The notes under the pieces: model-generated
The model's input: the letters and a program-made list of their open reading frames with translations, nothing else
Databases searched by the model: none
Told to the model about the DNA's origin: nothing
DNA from: Candidatus Omnitrophota bacterium
GTDB taxonomy: Bacteria > Omnitrophota > Gorgyraeia > Velamenicoccales > JABMQK01
Assembly (NCBI GenBank): GCA_028711115.1
Contig: JAQTSV010000001.1
Coordinates: forward strand, 582,032-646,031
Length of the DNA stretch: 64,000 nucleotides
Reading direction: 5' to 3'
Shown here: in pieces, positions 1,660 to 10,375 of the stretch
Numbering within the stretch: position 1 is the first letter of the stretch
How the letters are laid out: each line of letters begins with the position of its first letter
Position numbers and translations under genes: made by a program

Positions 1660-1688
1660 TTGATTTTTCTAAGATTATGAGGTATAAT
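1660..1688 (+). promoter_or_regulatory. Sigma70-like promoter (TTGATT - 17 nt - TATAAT)
   Basis: TTGATT at 1660-1665 and TATAAT at 1683-1688. The -10 ends only 7 nt before the ATG at 1696, and no Shine-Dalgarno lies between them. Confidence 0.4.
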
Positions 1689-1695
1689 CATATAT

Positions 1696-2004
1696 ATGAA
1701 GAAGATATGCCTAACAGCTTTGGTAAGTTTTATGATTTTTGCGTTGGTCAGCGGATTTATCGGCGAGACTTATGCTAGCAATCACAAGGATTGTGCATGT
1801 TGTACTTCAAATAAATGCCACAGCAATGCCAAATGCCATAATACCGCCAAGCCTTGCGTTTGCAGTTATCAGGCAACTCAGGTATTCTTACCGAAAAGCA
1901 ATTTTACGCCCGCGCTTATCTTTACCGGATATATTGCGCAAAATCTTGATTTTACCTACCTTTATTTATATACCGAAGATATCTTTCATCCTCCCAAAGC
2001 GTAA
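1696..2004 (+). CDS. Small exported Cys/His-rich protein (102 aa)
   Basis: Signal-peptide-like N-terminus (ends TYA-SN). This is followed by DCACCTSNKCHSNAKCHNTAKPCVC, with 7 Cys and several His in about 30 residues. The C-terminus ends HPPKA. Confidence 0.55.
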   Translation: MKKICLTALVSFMIFALVSGFIGETYASNHKDCACCTSNKCHSNAKCHNTAKPCVCSYQATQVFLPKSNFTPALIFTGYIAQNLDFTYLYLYTEDIFHPPKA

Positions 2005-2062
2005 TAGAAACGCATCTAATCAAAAATAACAAATACGTTTTATAAAATAAAGGAGAAATATT

Positions 2063-2290
2063 ATGAAGAAGTATATTTTTGTGTTGTTTATTATTATGTC
2101 TATGCTTTTGGGCAGCGGTTATGCTTTGGCTGCAGCAGAAAATTGTTGCGCAAAAACTTCCTGTGCGTGCGTAAAAGGAAGCTGTTGCGTGAACGGAAAA
2201 TGCAACTGCAACGCAAACTGCTGCGCTAAGGGTAGCTGCCACTGCGCTGACGGCAAATGTAACACAGAGTGCAATTGCCAAAAACAATAA
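2063..2290 (+). CDS. Exported metallothionein-like cysteine-rich peptide (75 aa precursor)
   Basis: Strong SD (AAAGGAG) 8 nt upstream of the ATG. Signal peptide ends ALA-AAEN. The mature 52 residues contain 15 Cys, with an internal duplication (NCCAKTSCAC... / NCCAKGSCHC...). Confidence 0.65.
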   Translation: MKKYIFVLFIIMSMLLGSGYALAAAENCCAKTSCACVKGSCCVNGKCNCNANCCAKGSCHCADGKCNTECNCQKQ

Positions 2291-2320
2291 CAGCTAGCGC
2301 GTAGTGTTTCTGTGAATAAG

Positions 2321-2356
2321 ATAGGGGAGGCAGAAAATCGCCTCCTCTATTTATTA
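2321..2356 (+). terminator. Rho-independent terminator after the Cys-rich gene pair
   Basis: An 11-bp stem (ATAGGGGAGGC / GCCTCCTCTAT, one G-U pair), an 8-nt loop and a T-rich tail (TTATT). Confidence 0.6.
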
Positions 2357-2387: not shown

Positions 2388-2417
2388 TTGACAGATTTGT
2401 GGTTTAATTAATATATT
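2388..2417 (+). promoter_or_regulatory. Sigma70-like promoter feeding the TPP riboswitch
   Basis: TTGACA at 2388-2393, and ATATAT/TATATT 17-18 nt downstream. Confidence 0.45.
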
Positions 2418-2560
2418 GAGAAACGGGGAGGCCGTAAATCGGCCTGAGAGTTCCGTCCGCCACTAAAACTTTGGCGGACGCCCGCCGACGTATCAGTGGC
2501 GGGCGTATATTAAACGGATTACCCAATGAACCTGATCTGGATAATGCCAGCGGAGGGAAA
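2418..2560 (+). promoter_or_regulatory. TPP (THI-box) riboswitch aptamer
   Basis: Matches the conserved core: GGGGAGGCC..GGCCTGAGAG, then TACCCAATGAACCTGATCTGGATAATGCCAGCGGAGGGAAAG. The variable P3 region (about 2451-2517) is expanded into two GC-rich hairpins. Confidence 0.88.
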
Positions 2561-2568
2561 GTAAATTT

Positions 2569-2601
2569 ATACCCTTATGCTTTTGGCATAAGGGTTTTTT
2601 G
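2569..2601 (+). terminator. Riboswitch expression-platform terminator
   Basis: Perfect 10-bp stem (ACCCTTATGC / GCATAAGGGT), 5-nt loop and a run of six T. It lies 28 nt before the start codon at 2629. Confidence 0.8.
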
Positions 2602-2628: not shown

Positions 2629-3675
2629 ATGAAGAAGCTTCCTAGGTTAGGAAAAATTACGCCGGATTTTTTTACCAAAGTCATCTATCCGCGGTTGGGC
2701 AATAAAGATTCATCCGTAATTGTCAAGCCGCAACACGGAGTTGACTTTGGAGTAATCTCTCTCGGCGGAAATGTAATGGTTATGTCCACAGACCCGTTTT
2801 ATATCGCCAGAGAACTCGGTATAGAAAAGGCAGCGTGGTTTGCAGTGCATATTTTGGCAAGCGACGTCGCGGTAAGCGGAATTCCTCCGCGTTATCTGGC
2901 GGTGGATTTAAACCTTCCTCCTGAAATGACAGAAAAAGAATTGCGTGGAATGTGGCAGACAGTGCATCTTGAATGTAAGAAATTGGGAATAGCGGTTATT
3001 ACAGGGCACACAGCGCGCTACAGCGGTTGCAACTATCCTATGGTTGGAGGAGCGACTATGTTCGGCGTGGGTAAACGCAAATCGCTCATCATCCCCAAGG
3101 CTCAGCCCAAGGATGCGATTATAATTTCCAAAGGCCCGGCAATAGAAACCACGGGGCTTATGGCAGCGTATTTTCCGGAATTCCTCGAAGAAAAATACGG
3201 AAGGGCATTTGTAAAAAAGGCACAAAGTATTTATTATCAGATGTCCACAGTCAAAGACGCATTAATCACGGCGCGTATAAAAGGCGTAACTGCCATGCAT
3301 GACGCGACCGAGTGCGGAGTTTTAGGCGGGCTTTTTGAAATGTCTCAGCACAGCCGCGTAGGCATGGATATTTTTCTCGACGATATTATAATTCAGGATG
3401 AAGTAAAAAAAACCTGCGAATGTTTTGGCATCGATCCGTATGTTTCCATAAGCGAAGGCACGCTCTTGGCAACGGTAAATAAGAAAAATGCCAGGAAAGT
3501 GGTTAAGACGTTGGAAGATGAAGGCATCAAATCCTGCATCGCAGGAGAAGTTGTTTCTTTCAAAGAAGGAGTCCATGTCTACAATAAAGGTAAAAAGAAT
3601 AAGCTTAAACATCCTGAAGTGGACCCGTTCTGGTCGAAGTTCGATGAATATCTCCGGAAAAAGAATAAGAAGTGA
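2629..3675 (+). CDS. AIR-synthase-related protein (PurM/ThiL/HypE/SelD superfamily), specific function unknown
   Basis: Strong SD (AAAGGAGAG). PurM-fold hallmarks: GVDFGVISL...MSTDPFY, ASDVAVSGIPPRYLAVDLNLP, AVITGHTARY. It sits directly under the TPP riboswitch. Confidence 0.8.
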   Translation: MKKLPRLGKITPDFFTKVIYPRLGNKDSSVIVKPQHGVDFGVISLGGNVMVMSTDPFYIARELGIEKAAWFAVHILASDVAVSGIPPRYLAVDLNLPPEMTEKELRGMWQTVHLECKKLGIAVITGHTARYSGCNYPMVGGATMFGVGKRKSLIIPKAQPKDAIIISKGPAIETTGLMAAYFPEFLEEKYGRAFVKKAQSIYYQMSTVKDALITARIKGVTAMHDATECGVLGGLFEMSQHSRVGMDIFLDDIIIQDEVKKTCECFGIDPYVSISEGTLLATVNKKNARKVVKTLEDEGIKSCIAGEVVSFKEGVHVYNKGKKNKLKHPEVDPFWSKFDEYLRKKNKK

Positions 3676-4384: not shown

Positions 4385-5611
4385 ATGAAAAGAGCGATTC
4401 TTACATTGCTACTGTTTGTCTTAATAGCAAGCCCTGTTTTTTCCAGAGACAAATGTGACGAGTCGAGGTATGGGATAGAAACGCCCGTCAGGGTAGAGCC
4501 TGTAATTCACAGAGAAGACTTTAGGGGAGAATCTCTAGGCGATGCAAAAGAATTTGTGGTTTATTTGGATAAAGGCGACAAACAGAACCATTATGTTCCT
4601 TCGGGTTGGATAGGCGATTATGGAGATATAAAAATGAATGAAGGGGATATGGTCAATCCGCACTCCGGGTCCACTGCTATTCAGTTTATCTACAATGCAA
4701 AAAAATCCAATGGCCAGGGTTGGGCAGGCGTATATTGGCAGAGTTCCGTAAACAACTGGGGTTCAAAAATCGGAGGTTTTGATCTTAGCAGTATGACTAA
4801 GGTAACTTTTTGGGCAAAAGGCGCAAAGGGCGGCGAGGTAATCCAGAAGTTTATGATAGGCGGCATAAAAGGCGAATATGCGGATTCTACGCTTATAGAA
4901 TTTGGTCCGGTAGAATTAACAAACACCTGGACTCAATATACTATTAACGTGGCAGGCAAGGACCTTTCTTATATTAACGGCGGTTTTGGCTGGGCAACTA
5001 CGGCAGACCTGAATGCGGACGGATGCAATTTTTATCTGGATGACATAAAGTTCGAGGCAGATCCTGCCATAAAGCCGCAAGGTCGACAGCCCCAGAATAT
5101 GCCGTTTTATGTCTACTCCGACAGAGGTTCAGCAAATAACCATTTTGTTCCCTCAGGTTGGATGGGAGATTACGGCGACATTAAATATGACGGCGCCTCC
5201 AAAGAAAATCCTTACTCAGGCAACACATGCATTAAGATTAATTACTGCGCATGTGCTTATCAAGGTGCGCGTTGGGCAGGTATATACTGGCAGAATCCAG
5301 CAAACAACTGGGGTAATATTGACGCCGGATATGATCTTTCCAAAGCCACTAAGCTTACCTTTTGGGCGAGGGGAGCAAAAGGCGGTGAGTACATCGATAA
5401 TTTTAAAGTAGGTGGCATTGGCGGTCAGTTTGGGGATTCCGGTATGGCGAATATAGGCCCAATCGTTCTTAACAAGGAATGGACGCAATATACCATTGAC
5501 CTGACCGGGAAAAATATGACCAGTATCATCGGCGGTTTCTGCTGGATGGCGAATATGGATAAGAATCCACAAGAATTTGATTTTTATTTGGATGAGATTA
5601 AGTTTGAATAA
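4385..5611 (+). CDS. Secreted protein with two tandem carbohydrate-binding-module-like beta-sandwich domains
   Basis: SD (AAAGGAGCGGG) and a signal peptide. Two roughly 175-aa modules share HY/FVPSGW-GDYGDIK, WAG-YWQ--NNWG, TFWA-GAKGGE and FYLD-IKFE. Confidence 0.8.
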   Translation: MKRAILTLLLFVLIASPVFSRDKCDESRYGIETPVRVEPVIHREDFRGESLGDAKEFVVYLDKGDKQNHYVPSGWIGDYGDIKMNEGDMVNPHSGSTAIQFIYNAKKSNGQGWAGVYWQSSVNNWGSKIGGFDLSSMTKVTFWAKGAKGGEVIQKFMIGGIKGEYADSTLIEFGPVELTNTWTQYTINVAGKDLSYINGGFGWATTADLNADGCNFYLDDIKFEADPAIKPQGRQPQNMPFYVYSDRGSANNHFVPSGWMGDYGDIKYDGASKENPYSGNTCIKINYCACAYQGARWAGIYWQNPANNWGNIDAGYDLSKATKLTFWARGAKGGEYIDNFKVGGIGGQFGDSGMANIGPIVLNKEWTQYTIDLTGKNMTSIIGGFCWMANMDKNPQEFDFYLDEIKFE

Positions 5612-5960: not shown

Positions 5961-6200
5961 ATGGCGGCATTTCATGGGCCTAAGATGTATGGTGCGGTAA
6001 CAGTAGGAGAGCGAGGGCAGGTGGTAATACCTTCGGAATTGAGGGAATCTTTTGGGGTCAAGGCAGGGGATAAGCTGATAGTTTTTGCCAAGCCAGGAGA
6101 AGCCATCGGCCTTATCCCGGCAGACCAATTCAATGAATTCCTTAGCCATATGAGTAAGATGATGGCAAGCATTAAGAAAGAAAAAACAAATAATAAATAA
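5961..6200 (+). CDS. AbrB/SpoVT/MazE-family DNA-binding protein
   Basis: Strong SD (AAAGGAGGA). Looped-hinge-helix signature VTVGERGQVVIPSELRESFGVKAGDKLIVF. Confidence 0.8.
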   Translation: MAAFHGPKMYGAVTVGERGQVVIPSELRESFGVKAGDKLIVFAKPGEAIGLIPADQFNEFLSHMSKMMASIKKEKTNNK

Positions 6201-7459
6201 TGAATAAATTTATAAAATTTTTTATAATTTTATTATTTTTGAGCTTCTTTTTGTATAATGCATCAGCCGAAGAAATTCTCACCTGGCAGGATTGTATTAA
6301 AGAAGCCCAGAAGAACCATCCTGACTTAATTTCTGCGCAGGAAAATGTAAAGGAGTCCCAGGCCAGTGAAAAAATTACCGCCAGCACTATTTATCCCCAA
6401 GTAGACGCAAGCGTAGACGCATCCCGGACCAAAACAACCAAAATCACCAATACATACACATACGGCGTAAGCGGAACGCAGTTATTGTTCGATGGTTTTA
6501 AGACTGATAATGATATAAAATCCGCTTCCGAAAATATAAAATATGCCCAGCAAGGTTACAGGTTTACTTCCTCCGAGGTAAGGTTGAATTTACGCACTGC
6601 ATTCATTAATTTGTTAAAGGCCCAGGAATTAATGTATGTAGCGGAAGAAATTGTAAAAATCAGAAGAGATAGTCTGGTATTGATATCCTTGCGTTATCAA
6701 TCCGGATTGGAACATAAAGGTGCGCTGTTGACCGCAGAGGCGAATAGCGCAGAGGCTAATTTCGAGCTTTCCCAGGCAAAGAGAGATGTGGAGTTGGCGC
6801 AGAGGCAGCTTACCAAAGAAATGGGACGCAAGGAATTTGCGCCTATGTCTGTGAAAGGAGATTTTACAGTCCGTGATACTGCTAAAGAAATTCCCGATCT
6901 CGAGGCTCTGGTAAAAAACAATCCCTCTTTATTACAGGCTGCGGCAAAGAAGAACGCCGCCGCTTTCAGTTTAAAATCCGCGTATGCAAATTTTGTCCCG
7001 AAAGTTTCAGGCGGAGCAGGCGCTAGTAAAACCAACTCGCACTGGCCTCCTGAAAATAACCAGTGGAATCTGGGATTAAGTCTGACTATGCCCATACTTG
7101 AAGGCGGATTAAGGCTGGCCCAGATTTCCCAGGCACAGGCTGTATACAAACAGGCAGAAGCCGATGAAAGAAGCGCAAGAGACAGCGCTGTTGTCGGCCT
7201 TGAGAAAATGTGGGTGGCATTACAAGACGCCATTGAGACTGTAGATGTGCAAAGTAAATCCCTGGAGGCTGCCGAAGAGCGCTCCAAAATAGCAGAGGCA
7301 CAATATTCGACAGGTTTTATTGCCTTTGATAACTGGATTATCATAGAGAATGATTTAGTAAATGCGAAAAAAACATTCTTGAATGCCCGGGCAAATGCCT
7401 TATTGGCTGAGGCAAATTGGATCCAGGCGAAAGGAGAGACATTAGAATATGCGGAATAA
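6200..7459 (+). CDS. TolC-family outer-membrane efflux protein
   Basis: Signal peptide. Two-repeat OEP architecture with typical coiled helical repeats. One-base overlap with the upstream stop. Confidence 0.85.
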   Translation: MNKFIKFFIILLFLSFFLYNASAEEILTWQDCIKEAQKNHPDLISAQENVKESQASEKITASTIYPQVDASVDASRTKTTKITNTYTYGVSGTQLLFDGFKTDNDIKSASENIKYAQQGYRFTSSEVRLNLRTAFINLLKAQELMYVAEEIVKIRRDSLVLISLRYQSGLEHKGALLTAEANSAEANFELSQAKRDVELAQRQLTKEMGRKEFAPMSVKGDFTVRDTAKEIPDLEALVKNNPSLLQAAAKKNAAAFSLKSAYANFVPKVSGGAGASKTNSHWPPENNQWNLGLSLTMPILEGGLRLAQISQAQAVYKQAEADERSARDSAVVGLEKMWVALQDAIETVDVQSKSLEAAEERSKIAEAQYSTGFIAFDNWIIIENDLVNAKKTFLNARANALLAEANWIQAKGETLEYAE

Positions 7460-8408
7460 AAAATTATTATTGTTTTTTGCTGTTGTAATTATTTTAGGTG
7501 TTGCAGGTTTTTATGTAACCAGAATAAAACAGAAAAGCCCTTCAGACGAGATAGTTAGAGAGATTGTGCCGGTTATGGGTTCAATCAAAACCTTTATTTC
7601 TTGTACCGGCACAGTCCTGCCCAAGAACCGCCTGGAAATAAAACCTCCGGTCAACGGCAGGATTGAGGATATTTTAGTCCAGGAAGGCGAAAAGGTAAAG
7701 ACCGGGCAGACTCTGGCGTGGATGAGCTCAACAGAAAGGGCTGCTCTACTGGATGCTGCCAGAGGCAAAGGGGAAGAAGATTTGAAATACTGGGAGGATA
7801 CCTATAAGCCCATACCTTTACTTGCGCCTATTGACGCAGAAGTGATTGTGGCAAAAACGCAGCCCGGCCAGACCATAACCACTGCCGATGCTGTATTGGT
7901 ATTATCAGACCAGCTGATTGTCCGTGCACAGGTCGACGAAACGGATATCGGTAAAATCACACCCGATATGAAAGCAATCATCACTCTGGATGCATATCCC
8001 GATATAAAAATAAATTCTTCTGTTGAACATATCTATTATGAATCAAAAACCGTCAATAATGTAACTATCTATGAAGTCGATTTAACTCCCCGAGAGGCGC
8101 CTGCGTTTTTCCGTTCCGGAATGAATGCCAGTGTGGATTTTATAGAACAGGGCAGAGAAAATGCCTTACTTATTCCTCAAGATGCGGTATCCAAAGATAA
8201 TGATGAAAATTATGTCCTGGTAAAACAGGATAACGGCAAAGAACCGCTGAAGGTAAGCGTTAAATTAGGTATTTCTGACGATAAGAATGTGGAAATCATT
8301 TCTGGTATCAAAGAGAGTGATAGAATAATACTAAAGACAAAAAAATATTCTTTACCCAAAAGCAGCACAACAGGCAGTAATCCTTTTATGCCGAGCCGCA
8401 GAAGATAA
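7449..8408 (+). CDS. macA: Efflux periplasmic adaptor (MacA/HlyD family)
   Basis: N-terminal TM anchor. Lipoyl-like motif (GRIEDILVQEGEKVKTGQTLA) and a beta-barrel region. Overlaps both neighbouring genes. Confidence 0.8.
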   Translation: MRNKKLLLFFAVVIILGVAGFYVTRIKQKSPSDEIVREIVPVMGSIKTFISCTGTVLPKNRLEIKPPVNGRIEDILVQEGEKVKTGQTLAWMSSTERAALLDAARGKGEEDLKYWEDTYKPIPLLAPIDAEVIVAKTQPGQTITTADAVLVLSDQLIVRAQVDETDIGKITPDMKAIITLDAYPDIKINSSVEHIYYESKTVNNVTIYEVDLTPREAPAFFRSGMNASVDFIEQGRENALLIPQDAVSKDNDENYVLVKQDNGKEPLKVSVKLGISDDKNVEIISGIKESDRIILKTKKYSLPKSSTTGSNPFMPSRRR

Positions 8409-10375
8409 TGATCGAATTAAAAAATATATACAAGACCTATCATATGGGCAATGTAGAGGTGAAGGCCCTGCAGGGTGTTTCTCTGAAAATTGCACCCGGG
8501 GAATTTGTGGCGATTATGGGGCCGTCGGGATCGGGAAAATCTACGCTGATGCATGTCTTAGGTTTATTGGACAGGCCGGATAGCGGGGAATATTATTTAG
8601 GAAAGAAAAAGATTAACGAACTTTTGGATGAGGAATTATCCGCGATAAGAAATCGGCTGGCTGGTTTTGTATTTCAGCAGTTTCATCTTTTACCGAGGAT
8701 GACTGCCCTGGAAAACGCAGCGTTACCTTTGATTTATGCAGGGAAGAGGCATTTAAAAGAAAGGGCAAGACAGAAAATTGAGGAAGTCGGTCTTGCGGAT
8801 AGGATGAGCCACAGGCCGAACGAGCTTTCCGGAGGCCAGCAGCAGCGCGTGGCAATTGCGCGTTCATTAGTCAACGACCCTCTGATAATTTTTGCAGATG
8901 AACCCACCGGTAATCTTGATTCCAAAAGCCAGGAAGAGATAATTTCCATTCTGAAAGATTTGAATCAAAAAGGCAAAACCATTATTATGGTTACTCACGA
9001 GAAAGAGGTTGCTGCGTACGCCCGGCGCGTCATTCGTATGCTCGACGGCCGGATTATCTCCGATGAAAAATCAGGAATTCCTGCAAAATATTCCCAGGAA
9101 AACCAAACCGACAAGATAATAGAAGTTGTCTTATCCAAATCCGAAAGAAAAGCCCGGGAGATTGAATTTTGGGATTATCTGCGCCAGGCAGCAGGGGCAA
9201 TGGTATCGCATAAAATGCGCTCATTCTTGTCTATTCTGGGGATATTAATCGGAGTAGCAGCAGTTATCGCTATGCTTGCAGTAGGTCAGGGAGCAAAAGA
9301 ATCAATTGAGAGTCAGCTGGCATCTTTAGGGTCCAATCTTTTATTGGTCAGGCCCGGTTCATCCAGAATGATGGGAGTGGCTTTGCAGGCAGGCACGGTA
9401 ACACGTTTTACATTTCAGGATGTTAGTGCCATAGAAAAACTTTCCGATGAAGTAAAGAGCGTAAGCCCGTCGGTGACAGGCAGAGGCCAGTTAGTCTACG
9501 GAAATAAGAACTGGAATACTCAGATTGAAGGAGTGGGTGTGGATTACGCCTCAATCCGCGCTTCACAACCGGCTGTGGGAAGGTTTATTTCCGAGGATGA
9601 AGTAAAAATGAGAGATAGGGTTGTTTTGCTTGGTACGACGGTGGCCAGGGAACTTTTCGGAGATGCAAATCCTGTCGGCGAAACAATAAAAATAAACCTG
9701 CTTAACTTTAAAGTAATCGGGGTATTGCCTGAGAAAGGCGCGGGTGGTTTTCATGATCAGGACGACACAGTGCTTATTCCCGTTACTACAGCCATGTACA
9801 GAGTCTTGGGAAAAGAATACATTGATTCTATTTATGTGGAAGCGAAAAGTCCTGATTCAATCGATGCAGCGCAAGAGGCCATAACCAATCTTATTATAAA
9901 ACAACATCATCTGGCTAAAGATGAAGAAGATTCATTCCAGATCCGGAATATGTCTGATATTAAGAATGCGCTTGAGGCCACCACGAAAACAATGTCTTTG
10001 TTATTGGGTTCGATTGCCGCCATATCGCTTTTGGTCGGCGGGATCGGCATTATGAATATTATGCTTGTGTCGGTGAGTGAGCGCACGCGCGAAATCGGCC
10101 TGCGCAAGGCAATCGGCGCAACCAATAAAGATATTATGGTGCAATTTCTGATTGAGGCGGTATTAATGTCTTTCATCGGCGGAATATGCGGTGTTTTATT
10201 GGGTAGCGGCATATCTATTCTCATTACTCTTTTTGCCGGATGGACAGTGAGAGTTTCTATGTTTTCTGTAATTCTCGCCACAACATTTTCTTTAATCGTG
10301 GGTATAGTATTCGGACTTTGGCCAGCCCAAAAAGCTTCCCAGCTTGATCCCATCGAAGCATTGAGATACGAATAA
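8408..10375 (+). CDS. macB: MacB-type ABC transporter, fused ATPase and FtsX-like permease
   Basis: Walker [10 protein letters not shown], signature LSGGQQQR, Walker [10 protein letters not shown] large periplasmic domain is followed by the C-terminal FtsX four-TM region. Confidence 0.9.

Follow-up and report, generated by a model that had tools for sequence, protein, structure and literature searches.

The gene pair and its transcription unit

Two small adjacent genes for cysteine-rich proteins, referred to here as gene 1 and gene 2, were analyzed in a 64-kb stretch of DNA (the window) from a metagenome-assembled genome (MAG) of the Omnitrophota. Gene 1 (1696..2004) encodes a small Cys/His protein of 102 amino acids (aa) that is predicted to be exported and is proposed to be a metal-sensing leader or arrest peptide, CutF-like in its architecture. 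Gene 2 (2063..2290) encodes the 75-aa precursor of a predicted exported peptide that is rich in Cys and metallothionein-like. Both genes, and all features of the pair described below, are on the forward (+) strand. The list of open reading frames (ORFs) places the two genes exactly where the original prediction, made from the sequence of the window, had placed them, and the sequences quoted there were exact. No second copy of the pair was found within the 64-kb window.

A consensus scan identified a sigma-70-type promoter at 1660..1688 (TTGATT-17-TATAAT, 10 of 12 matches), the -10 box of which ends 7 nucleotides (nt) 5' of the gene 1 ATG. A promoter of the form TTG(T/A)(T/A)T-17-TATA(A/C/T)T was kept in about 17 of 20 homologous loci, where it ends 6-7 nt before the gene 1 ATG. 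There was no Shine-Dalgarno (SD) sequence at the normal distance from the gene 1 start (1683-1698 in the window, and the same position in loci L001-L026). Because the -10 box lies only 6-7 nt from the ATG and a normally placed SD is absent, gene 1 is probably translated from an mRNA that is leaderless or nearly so, with an inferred transcription start. Gene 2 is preceded by a canonical SD, AAGGAG (2050-2055), located 7 nt before its ATG in the A/U-rich spacer of 58 nt that separates the two genes (2005..2062), and spacers of 34-58 nt with AAGGAG(A/G) were found in 19 of 20 loci. The unit is closed by a hairpin resembling an intrinsic terminator (2319..2352), which had a minimum free energy (MFE) of -27.4 kcal/mol (z = -5.1; 0 of 200 shuffles folded as well), and the same stem was picked by a scan of the window. 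A GC hairpin followed by a U tract was present 3' of gene 2 in all 20 loci checked, with sequences that differed between loci, and the genes that flank the pair also varied among loci. The pair is a self-contained unit that consists of promoter, gene 1, spacer, gene 2, and terminator, in keeping with the earlier description of two genes framed by a promoter and a terminator.

The gene 1 product was 100% identical to an NCBI 'hypothetical protein' from a Candidatus Omnitrophica MAG, encoded on a 1.57-Mb contig. Word-indexed searches returned few relatives, four for gene 2 and eight for gene 1, and a full HMMER scan of 1.84 billion protein representatives with a gene 1 profile returned 47 cluster representatives. 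A later profile search for gene 1 gave 83 strong matches, all of them unnamed. A 1080-aa match with 16 matched stretches (P0052) was rejected as a translation artefact of a tandem repeat. When GTDB genomes and JGI metagenomes were scanned, about 20 loci were found to carry the pair, and their records were mostly labeled Omnitrophota, with a few Planctomycetales or Margulisiibacteriota. In every locus a gene 2 homolog (42-81% identity) was encoded directly after gene 1 on the same strand, and all seven loci that were found through gene 2 also carried gene 1.

The ratio of nonsynonymous to synonymous substitution rates (dN/dS) in gene 2 was 0.07-0.25, with a proportion of synonymous differences (pS) of 0.3-0.8, and synonymous sites were near saturation; by this measure gene 2 is under strong purifying selection. 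Cys made up 20% of gene 2 and 1.2% of the long ORFs of the window, and the Cys columns were invariant or nearly invariant in homologs of the pair. A spurious ORF in a stretch rich in Cys codons had been the concern with the original prediction, which proposed conservation in related genomes as the check. Since the pair recurs in about 20 loci, keeps its Cys columns, has a low dN/dS, and has a Cys share far above that of the other ORFs in the window, it is not a chance occurrence, and it is virtually certain that it is a real conserved bicistron.

One locus (L021) had an insertion of about 180 nt between gene 1 and gene 2 (L021 3614-3796) that was G+C-rich and highly structured. The 252-nt stretch folded with this insertion had an MFE of -70 kcal/mol, where other loci have an A/U-rich spacer of 34-58 nt. 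The insertion may be a small mobile or repeat element.

The cysteine-rich peptide encoded by gene 2

The N-termini of both products passed a simple rule-based check for export signals (MKK, 20-22 uncharged residues, and a -3/-1 site), and thus both are predicted to be exported, as had been claimed for them before. The signal peptide of gene 2 is of the Sec type (aa 1-23, 2063..2131) and ends in GYALA/AAE, and the A-x-A site was kept in 19 homologs as ALA, VWA, AFA, or SLA. The predicted mature peptide (2132..2287) has 52 residues, including 15 Cys, 6 Lys, and no aromatic residues. Its Cys residues are arranged as CC-x4-C-x-C, x4, CC-x4-C-x-C, x3, CC-x4-C-x-C, x4, C-x3-C-x-C, and the spacing was identical in most homologs. 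The original prediction gave the mature length, the Cys count, and the ALA-AAE site correctly, but its description of two similar halves undersells what are four tandem units.

The composition of the mature peptide is that of a metallothionein, as it has 29% Cys, no Phe, Trp, or Tyr, and one His, and the homologs are alike in this respect. It is rich in Lys, Gly, Asn, and Ser and has almost no hydrophobic residues. Neither gene 2 nor its 19 homologs matched a metallothionein family hidden Markov model (HMM) at E ≤ 10, and gene 2 had no match in Pfam, NCBIfam, or the PDB, the last searched both by sequence and by profile. Searches with both families, those of gene 1 and gene 2, gave only sub-threshold compositional matches from one member each (DUF6153, E = 0.016; vertebrate Metallothio, 0.0037). 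The earlier term 'metallothionein-like' is therefore apt for the composition of the peptide, with no metallothionein family matched by its sequence. AlphaFold2, run on a small alignment, gave no confident fold for gene 2, with a predicted local distance difference test (pLDDT) score of 53; low confidence is compatible with a metal-thiolate peptide and not diagnostic of one.

The bacterial metallothioneins SmtA/BmtA and MymT are similar to gene 2 in that they are small, contain about 30% Cys in C-x-C and CC motifs, and have few or no aromatic residues. They differ in that they are cytoplasmic and have no signal peptide, and the fold of SmtA is zinc-finger-like and includes His ligands, whereas gene 2 has a predicted Sec signal and a four-fold CC-x4-C-x-C repeat. 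Outside the cytoplasm, Csp1 of methanotrophs is a Tat-exported four-helix Cu store, and PcoE/SilE are periplasmic proteins that use Met and His. Gene 2 is like these in being a small, ligand-dense protein, for which soft-metal buffering outside the cytoplasm is proposed. However, Csp1 is a folded helical bundle with Cys lining its core and PcoE/SilE rely on Met and His, whereas gene 2 is Cys-only, built from repeats, and probably unstructured as an apo-peptide. To our knowledge, the bacterial metallothioneins described so far are cytoplasmic, and periplasmic sponges are known to rely on Met/His or on a helical bundle.

A Sec signal, small size, and strict Cys spacing are also typical of disulfide-knotted peptides, and gene 2 could encode a disulfide-rich secreted peptide (a toxin, a bacteriocin-like peptide, or a structural peptide) with gene 1 as a partner that serves in immunity, maturation, or export. 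A host-associated lifestyle is often assumed for Omnitrophota, which would suit such a role. The number of Cys residues is odd in gene 2 (15) and variable in the homologs (16, 12, 8, and 7). Gene 2 variants of 46 aa in two loci (L008 1714-1854 and L025 741-881) retained, besides the signal peptide, the first Cys unit, the last one, or both, and had lost the inner repeats, leaving 7-8 Cys and indicating that the repeat array can contract. With a Cys count that is odd and variable, and with loss of repeats tolerated, including variants with half of the Cys residues, these features fit a modular array of thiolate ligands better than a fixed disulfide knot, although a better fit is not proof. A disulfide-rich peptide also has to be reconciled with the lack of aromatic or hydrophobic core residues, with the absence of a confident AlphaFold model and of a PDB or Pfam relative, with the absence of a conserved transporter, protease, or immunity gene beside the pair, and with the finding, described below, that relatives of gene 1 head metal operons. 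This explanation is considered quite improbable. It appears somewhat more likely than not that gene 2 binds soft metals.

Gene 1 and the proposed sensing mechanism

Gene 1 starts with a predicted export signal (aa 1-27, 1696..1776) made up of MKK, a 20-residue hydrophobic stretch, and a TYA/S cleavage site, and both the position of the signal and the (V/T)-Y-A motif were kept in the homologs. The signal is followed by a Cys/His cluster at aa 33-56 (1792..1863; C-A-CC-TSNK-CH-SNAK-CH-NTAKP-C-V-C), which is the proposed ligand-sensing motif. The proposed ribosome-arrest element is the motif DIFHPPK at aa 95-101 (1978..1998), the prolines of which are 2 residues before the stop codon. The HPP motif had been noticed earlier near the end of the protein but was taken for the end itself, and the true end is ...EDIFHPPKA. 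Across 44 sequences the only invariant residues were F97, H98, P99, P100, and C54; C35, C36, C47, and C56 were at least 90% conserved and Y88 was nearly invariant. FHPP was found 2-8 residues from the C-terminal end throughout the family. From the Cys cluster to the C-terminus, the sequence was poorly conserved but its length was fixed. C56 and H98 of gene 1 are 42 residues apart, and among 42 representatives the last Cys and the His were 42-43 residues apart in 35 (40-41 intervening residues) and 41-45 apart in 40. No member of the 44-sequence family had a Pfam or NCBIfam match, searches of the PDB by sequence and profile also gave none, and AlphaFold2 on a small alignment yielded a pLDDT of 50 with no confident fold. 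Because invariance was confined to the Cys cluster and FHPP, and the spacer between them was fixed in length but variable in sequence, gene 1 was read as an arrest-peptide sensor.

A permissive profile search recovered 37 further small proteins (P0112-P0148, 85-162 aa) from gammaproteobacterial, deltaproteobacterial, planctomycete, Bacteroidota-like, and unassigned contigs. All 37 had an N-terminal hydrophobic segment and a Cys-rich middle and ended in DIFHPP(K/R) followed by 0-8 residues; the presence of DIFHPP(K/R) is partly due to the construction of the word index, but the C-terminal position, the size, and the Cys cluster are not. When the gene 1 profile was aligned with the gammaproteobacterial group using hhalign, only the last 21 columns aligned (probability 94%) and the rest was unalignable. 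The distance from the last Cys to the His was 40-45 residues in 8 of 10 of these lineages and 65-66 in two Bacteroidota-like members. The proteins from other phyla had no Pfam or NCBIfam match, with DUF2946 and the NCBIfam models searched up to E = 10, and a tblastn search of a plasmid collection with the gammaproteobacterial relative gave no match. Text searches of the literature returned nothing relevant on DIFHPP/FHPPK, on exported or periplasmic metallothionein, or on Cys-rich Omnitrophota proteins.

The genes next to these relatives (loci L016-L019 and L027-L033) were mostly related to metals. The gammaproteobacterial protein was encoded directly 5' of a CopA-type multicopper oxidase (TIGR01480, 1e-119). 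In other loci the DIFHPPK protein was followed by a 6-Cys protein, CzcB, and CzcA; by a Met-rich YtkA lipoprotein and a TonB receptor; by an HMA protein and a MerT-like membrane protein; or by a His-rich lipoprotein. Three loci had exported low-complexity proteins rich in Met, Gly, and His downstream (L027 7046-7420; L029 6502-6825 and 6939-7298; L033 2809-3120), with a cation diffusion facilitator (CDF) transporter nearby in two of the three. These Met-rich proteins, located one or two genes after the DIFHPPK leader, contain 11-18 Met, many Gly, and in L027 10 His, and had no Pfam match. They look like Met-rich periplasmic sponges of the Cu(I)/Ag(I) type, and gene 2 could be the Cys-based counterpart of the sponges that follow other DIFHPPK leaders. 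The planctomycete locus was the only context without clear metal genes. The original prediction had ventured that the layout of gene 1 recalls small exported Cys/His proteins found near metal genes in other phyla, and this hunch was borne out by a common layout, common C-terminal 21 residues, and the neighbors listed above.

The contig of locus L032 carried RF-1, the DIFHPPK protein, and proteins of 235, 143, and 120 aa, repeated two to three times. This repetition probably stems from a small element that is circular or was assembled in tandem.

The layout of gene 1 has parallels in two characterized metal sensors. CutF of Rhodobacter capsulatus, the product of the first gene of the cutFOG operon, has a Sec signal, a Cys motif, and 45 residues leading to a C-terminal Pro motif (PMC9973294). 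Cu bound to the nascent exported CutF chain prolongs a pause at the Pro motif, which melts a stem-loop that hides the SD of the next gene (PMC9973294; 10.1101/2025.02.05.636593). In CruR, the DUF2946 protein of Bordetella pertussis, the 45 residues between the Cys and Pro motifs are conserved to 1-2 and are functionally required (PMC9426467). CruR proteins have an export signal, carry the Pro motif near the C-terminal end, and head metal operons (PMC9426467).

Gene 1 resembles CutF in being small, predicted to be exported, and first in its operon, with a Cys motif, a Pro motif followed by 2 residues and the stop codon, and a short gap before the next gene. It passes the rule-based filters of the CutF authors (102 aa, PP at 99-100 of 102, 58-nt spacer, with the signal judged by rule), and its gammaproteobacterial relative lies directly 5' of a multicopper oxidase, as CutF does. 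The differences are that gene 1 has no detectable homology to CutF, ends in FHPP in place of GPPPRL, and has a multi-Cys/His cluster where CutF has CxxxC. The target in this case would be a 75-aa Cys-rich peptide with a Sec signal, as opposed to a Tat-exported enzyme, and the phylum is Omnitrophota. With CruR, gene 1 shares the export signal, the Cys motif, and a C-terminal xxPP, which in CruR is 3 residues before the end. CruR differs in having CXXC and RAPP with 45 intervening residues, as compared to 40-41 in gene 1, and in having a long G+C-rich spacer with Rho-dependent control, as compared to the A/U-rich 58-nt spacer of the window. Neither CXXC nor CxxxC occurs at conserved positions in gene 1, which has C-x-CC, two CH pairs, and C-x-C, a different motif that would be comparable in function. 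The gene 1 family has the near-constant Cys-to-Pro distance that marks CruR and CutF (about 45, conserved to 1-2), and its di-proline is correctly placed near the end, but the motif, FHPP, differs from both RAPP and PPP. RAPP-like arrest peptides (SecM, ApdA, ApdP, and the RQH family; PMC10987492, PMC12992588) are also small secretory or membrane proteins that have a short C-terminal Pro motif, are encoded upstream of a regulated gene, and have N-terminal parts that are not conserved between families. They differ in that they monitor the Sec/YidC machinery and not a ligand, and arrest at DIFHPPK is only proposed. By architecture and context gene 1 probably belongs to the CutF/CruR class. The claim made for both genes is that they would work like CutF/CruR and like metallothioneins, not that they are members of those families by sequence.

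Taken with the observed anatomy, conservation, and spacing of gene 1, the bicistron, and the metal-gene contexts of the relatives, these comparisons suggest that a metal-gated, CutF-like arrest-peptide leader controls an exported metallothionein-like peptide. We put the probability of this reading at about 0.5. Gene 1 and gene 2 would then form a module that handles a thiophilic metal or metalloid outside the cytoplasm. The nascent gene 1 chain would go to the Sec translocon during translation, and once the ribosome reached DIFHPPK, the approximately 42 residues from the Pro-Pro site to the last Cys would bring the Cys/His cluster to the periplasmic mouth of SecY or past it. A ligand on the exposed cluster would alter the dwell of the ribosome at Pro-Pro, and the dwell time would set the yield of gene 2 from the same mRNA. 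The effector would be the 52 Sec-exported residues of gene 2, the 15 thiols of which may buffer or sequester soft metals in the periplasm, with Cu(I), Zn, Cd, and possibly As(III) as candidates. A buffering pair of two proteins, as originally suggested, is probably not what is encoded: from its CutF/CruR anatomy gene 1 is more likely to be a switch, and gene 2 the only buffer. Whether gene 1 works by ribosome arrest at all is, in our estimate, evenly balanced.

The weak link of this mechanism is the coupling of the pause to gene 2. Candidate routes of transmission include unmasking of the SD, a queued second ribosome, protection from Rho, and protection from RNases. The best indications of SD masking were in a second clade, with spacers of 34-40 nt and longer gene 1 tails (PPKVNLF before the stop codon), in which codons of the tail pair with the gene 2 SD, and RNAalifold predicted a 5-bp helix between tail codons and SD in this short-spacer clade. 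The gene 2 SD was predicted to be mostly paired, at 0.88, as compared to 0.77 in synonymous recodings of the 3' end of gene 1 (p = 0.008, for loci that are not independent). Only in the short-spacer clade did pairing of the SD with the region that a ribosome paused at Pro-Pro would cover exceed the null. A conserved anti-SD role of the Pro-Pro codons themselves (CCUCC) was rejected, as the codons vary (CCU CCG, CCC CCG, CCA CCG) and follow genome usage.

Several results weigh against the proposed mechanism. In the window, the region from the end of gene 1 to the start of gene 2 folded no better than shuffles (z = -0.33) and the clade of the window had no consensus RNA structure, so a CutF-like stem-loop was not recovered there. 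The partner of the SD in the window is formed by the Y-L-Y-L-Y codons, about 30 nt 5' of the His codon and outside the footprint of the paused ribosome, and the helix of the short-spacer clade had no compensatory base changes. The tested arrest consensus of RAPP-like peptides is (R/Q/H)(A/G/D)(P/G/S)(P/G) (PMC10987492), which FHPP or H-P-P-K misfits at the first or second position. DUF2946 (PF11162) matched neither gene 1 at E ≤ 1 nor, at E ≤ 10, any of the 44 sequences of the family. In an oxidizing periplasm the 15 thiols of gene 2 would form disulfides. The genes that recur next to the pair in Omnitrophota are those of sulfur assimilation and thiamine, as opposed to classic metal resistance, and all of the data come from MAGs and metagenome contigs. 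Finally, gene 1 shows a semi-conserved pattern of aromatic residues and low-confidence beta strands over residues 58-90, as a stable folded product might.

That last pattern fits a different explanation, in which the two genes encode stable periplasmic partners with no translational control: gene 1 would be a membrane-anchored or soluble Cys/His metallochaperone or loading factor that joins the thiol-rich gene 2 peptide in handling metals or metalloids, and DIFHPPK a recognition tag for another protein or a protease. Predicted export of both products is consistent with this, as are the lack of a conserved SD-masking structure in the clade of the window and the resemblance of the Cys motif of gene 1 (CC-x4-C ... 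C-x-C) to the repeat unit of gene 2. Stable partners would leave unexplained why a 7-residue motif is invariant at the extreme C-terminus of otherwise unrelated proteins across phyla. A spacer of 40-45 residues that is kept in length and variable in sequence is hard to explain for a folded domain and matches the DUF2946/CutF sensors; gene 1 has no confident fold, and CutF is undetectable as a stable protein (PMC9973294). Stable partnership is thus judged unlikely, and the arrest-peptide leader is preferred.

If the leader mechanism is correct, sensing of extracytoplasmic metals by nascent chains, as in CutF and CruR, would extend far beyond Pfam DUF2946, through a sequence-distinct DIFHPPK class that is present in several phyla and invisible to current family libraries. 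Bacteria would own an exported, thiolate-based metal buffer, and a Cys-rich secreted peptide would be a target not described for sensors of the CutF/CruR type. It would also provide the first functional handle on a conserved gene pair of the Omnitrophota, a phylum with almost no experimentally characterized genes. The DIFHPPK loci with Met-rich sponges suggest that a sensor leader followed by a disposable periplasmic ligand sponge may be a general design. A bolder version, which we regard as rather doubtful, is that DIFHPP(K/R) would be an unrecognized pan-bacterial motif for ligand-gated arrest, distinct from RAPP/PPP and recruited repeatedly by unrelated small exported sensors rich in Cys, in each case about 42 residues beyond the last ligand Cys. 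On a leaderless bicistronic mRNA of Omnitrophota it would gate the first bacterial metallothionein to be exported by Sec, whose repeat would mirror the Cys motif of the sensor, with both tuned to the same ligand.

Genomic neighborhood in the Omnitrophota

The genes 5' of the pair in 7-11 loci encoded Rrf2, O-acetylhomoserine sulfhydrylase (MetY), cysteine synthase (CysK), MetX, MetW, and a 59-aa tautomerase. This sulfur-assimilation block, with sulfide-dependent thiazole synthase genes downstream, was a recurrent neighbor of the pair (L006-L013, L022, L024, and L026, upstream; L001, L014, and L015). The genes 3' of the pair variously included a sulfide-dependent thiazole synthase or other thiamine genes. 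FeoA-FeoB was encoded directly after the pair terminator in two loci (L006 10626-12640 and L011 10637-12597). In two loci of the clade closest to the window (L024 1603-4196 and L026 10358-12319), the terminator was directly followed by a DUF134 protein, an ArsP_1 permease, and a Thioredoxin_3 protein, and an arsenite methyltransferase after the pair was found in L024 only (NF008823, 372 bits). The neighbors in L024 and L026 and the FeoAB genes of L006 and L011 were counted in favor of a role in metal handling. Because the pair has its own promoter and terminator, the flanking genes are treated as a neighborhood and not an operon, and the association may reflect either function or shared ancestry.

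This neighborhood adds As(III) to Cu, Zn, and Cd as a candidate ligand, and keeps in play a role for the pair in thiol redox or sulfur status. The Cys cluster of gene 1 would then report periplasmic oxidation, sulfide, or polysulfide, and gene 2 would act as a sacrificial buffer of thiols, or as a reserve of Cys or sulfur, tied to the neighboring Cys, Met, and thiazole genes. The 7-11 loci in which the pair lies between the Rrf2-to-tautomerase block and the thiazole synthase point in this direction, as does L001, where the pair follows a cluster of rubredoxin, desulfoferrodoxin, rubrerythrin, and a TrxB-like protein. Nevertheless, we consider this explanation very improbable: the pair is transcriptionally self-contained, its flanks differ in the window, L003, L004, L014, and L024, the DIFHPPK relatives of other phyla precede metal genes and not sulfur genes, and exporting cysteine as a reserve would be wasteful.

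The thiamine and sulfur genes downstream of gene 2 in several loci also bear on whether gene 2 could be a Cys-codon-rich leader ORF (an attenuator) for these genes, or else the precursor of a ribosomally synthesized and post-translationally modified peptide (RiPP). Polycysteine leader ORFs that sense Cys-tRNA exist in mycobacteria. Here, however, gene 2 is set apart from the next gene by a strong terminator and by a distinct promoter with a thiamine pyrophosphate (TPP) riboswitch, the 75 codons of gene 2 far exceed known leaders, and the non-Cys residues and the signal peptide are conserved (dN/dS 0.1-0.25). No modifying enzyme (a radical S-adenosylmethionine enzyme, cyclodehydratase, or similar) is conserved nearby. 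Ruled out by the terminator, the pattern of selection, and the lack of modifying enzymes, the leader-ORF and RiPP explanations were given almost no weight.

The TPP riboswitch of the window (2414-2575) scored 54.0 bits, as compared to the Rfam gathering score of 54.3, and is therefore below the default scan threshold. It has a 62-nt insertion in its variable stem, and within the element region (2388-2600, +) it has a promoter-like site (2388-2417) and a terminator-like hairpin (2571-2595) of its own. The gene 3' of the riboswitch (2629-3675) is AIR-synthase-related and resembles HypE, ThiL, and SelD below the cut-offs of these families, and it would be an unusual gene under TPP control.

Further downstream in the window (5961-10375, +), an AbrB/MazE-type small DNA-binding protein was followed by a TolC-like OEP, an HlyD-type adaptor, and a MacB-type ABC transporter. 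The TolC-HlyD-MacB set was also found no more than 10 kb from the pair in L004, L015, and L026, at relative positions that differed. Between the riboswitch region and this set, a gene at 4385-5611 (+) encodes a 408-aa exported protein with two internal repeats of about 190 aa (NHYVPSGWIGDYGDIK... / NHFVPSGWMGDYGDIK...), for which the only family match was a borderline choice-of-anchor J domain.

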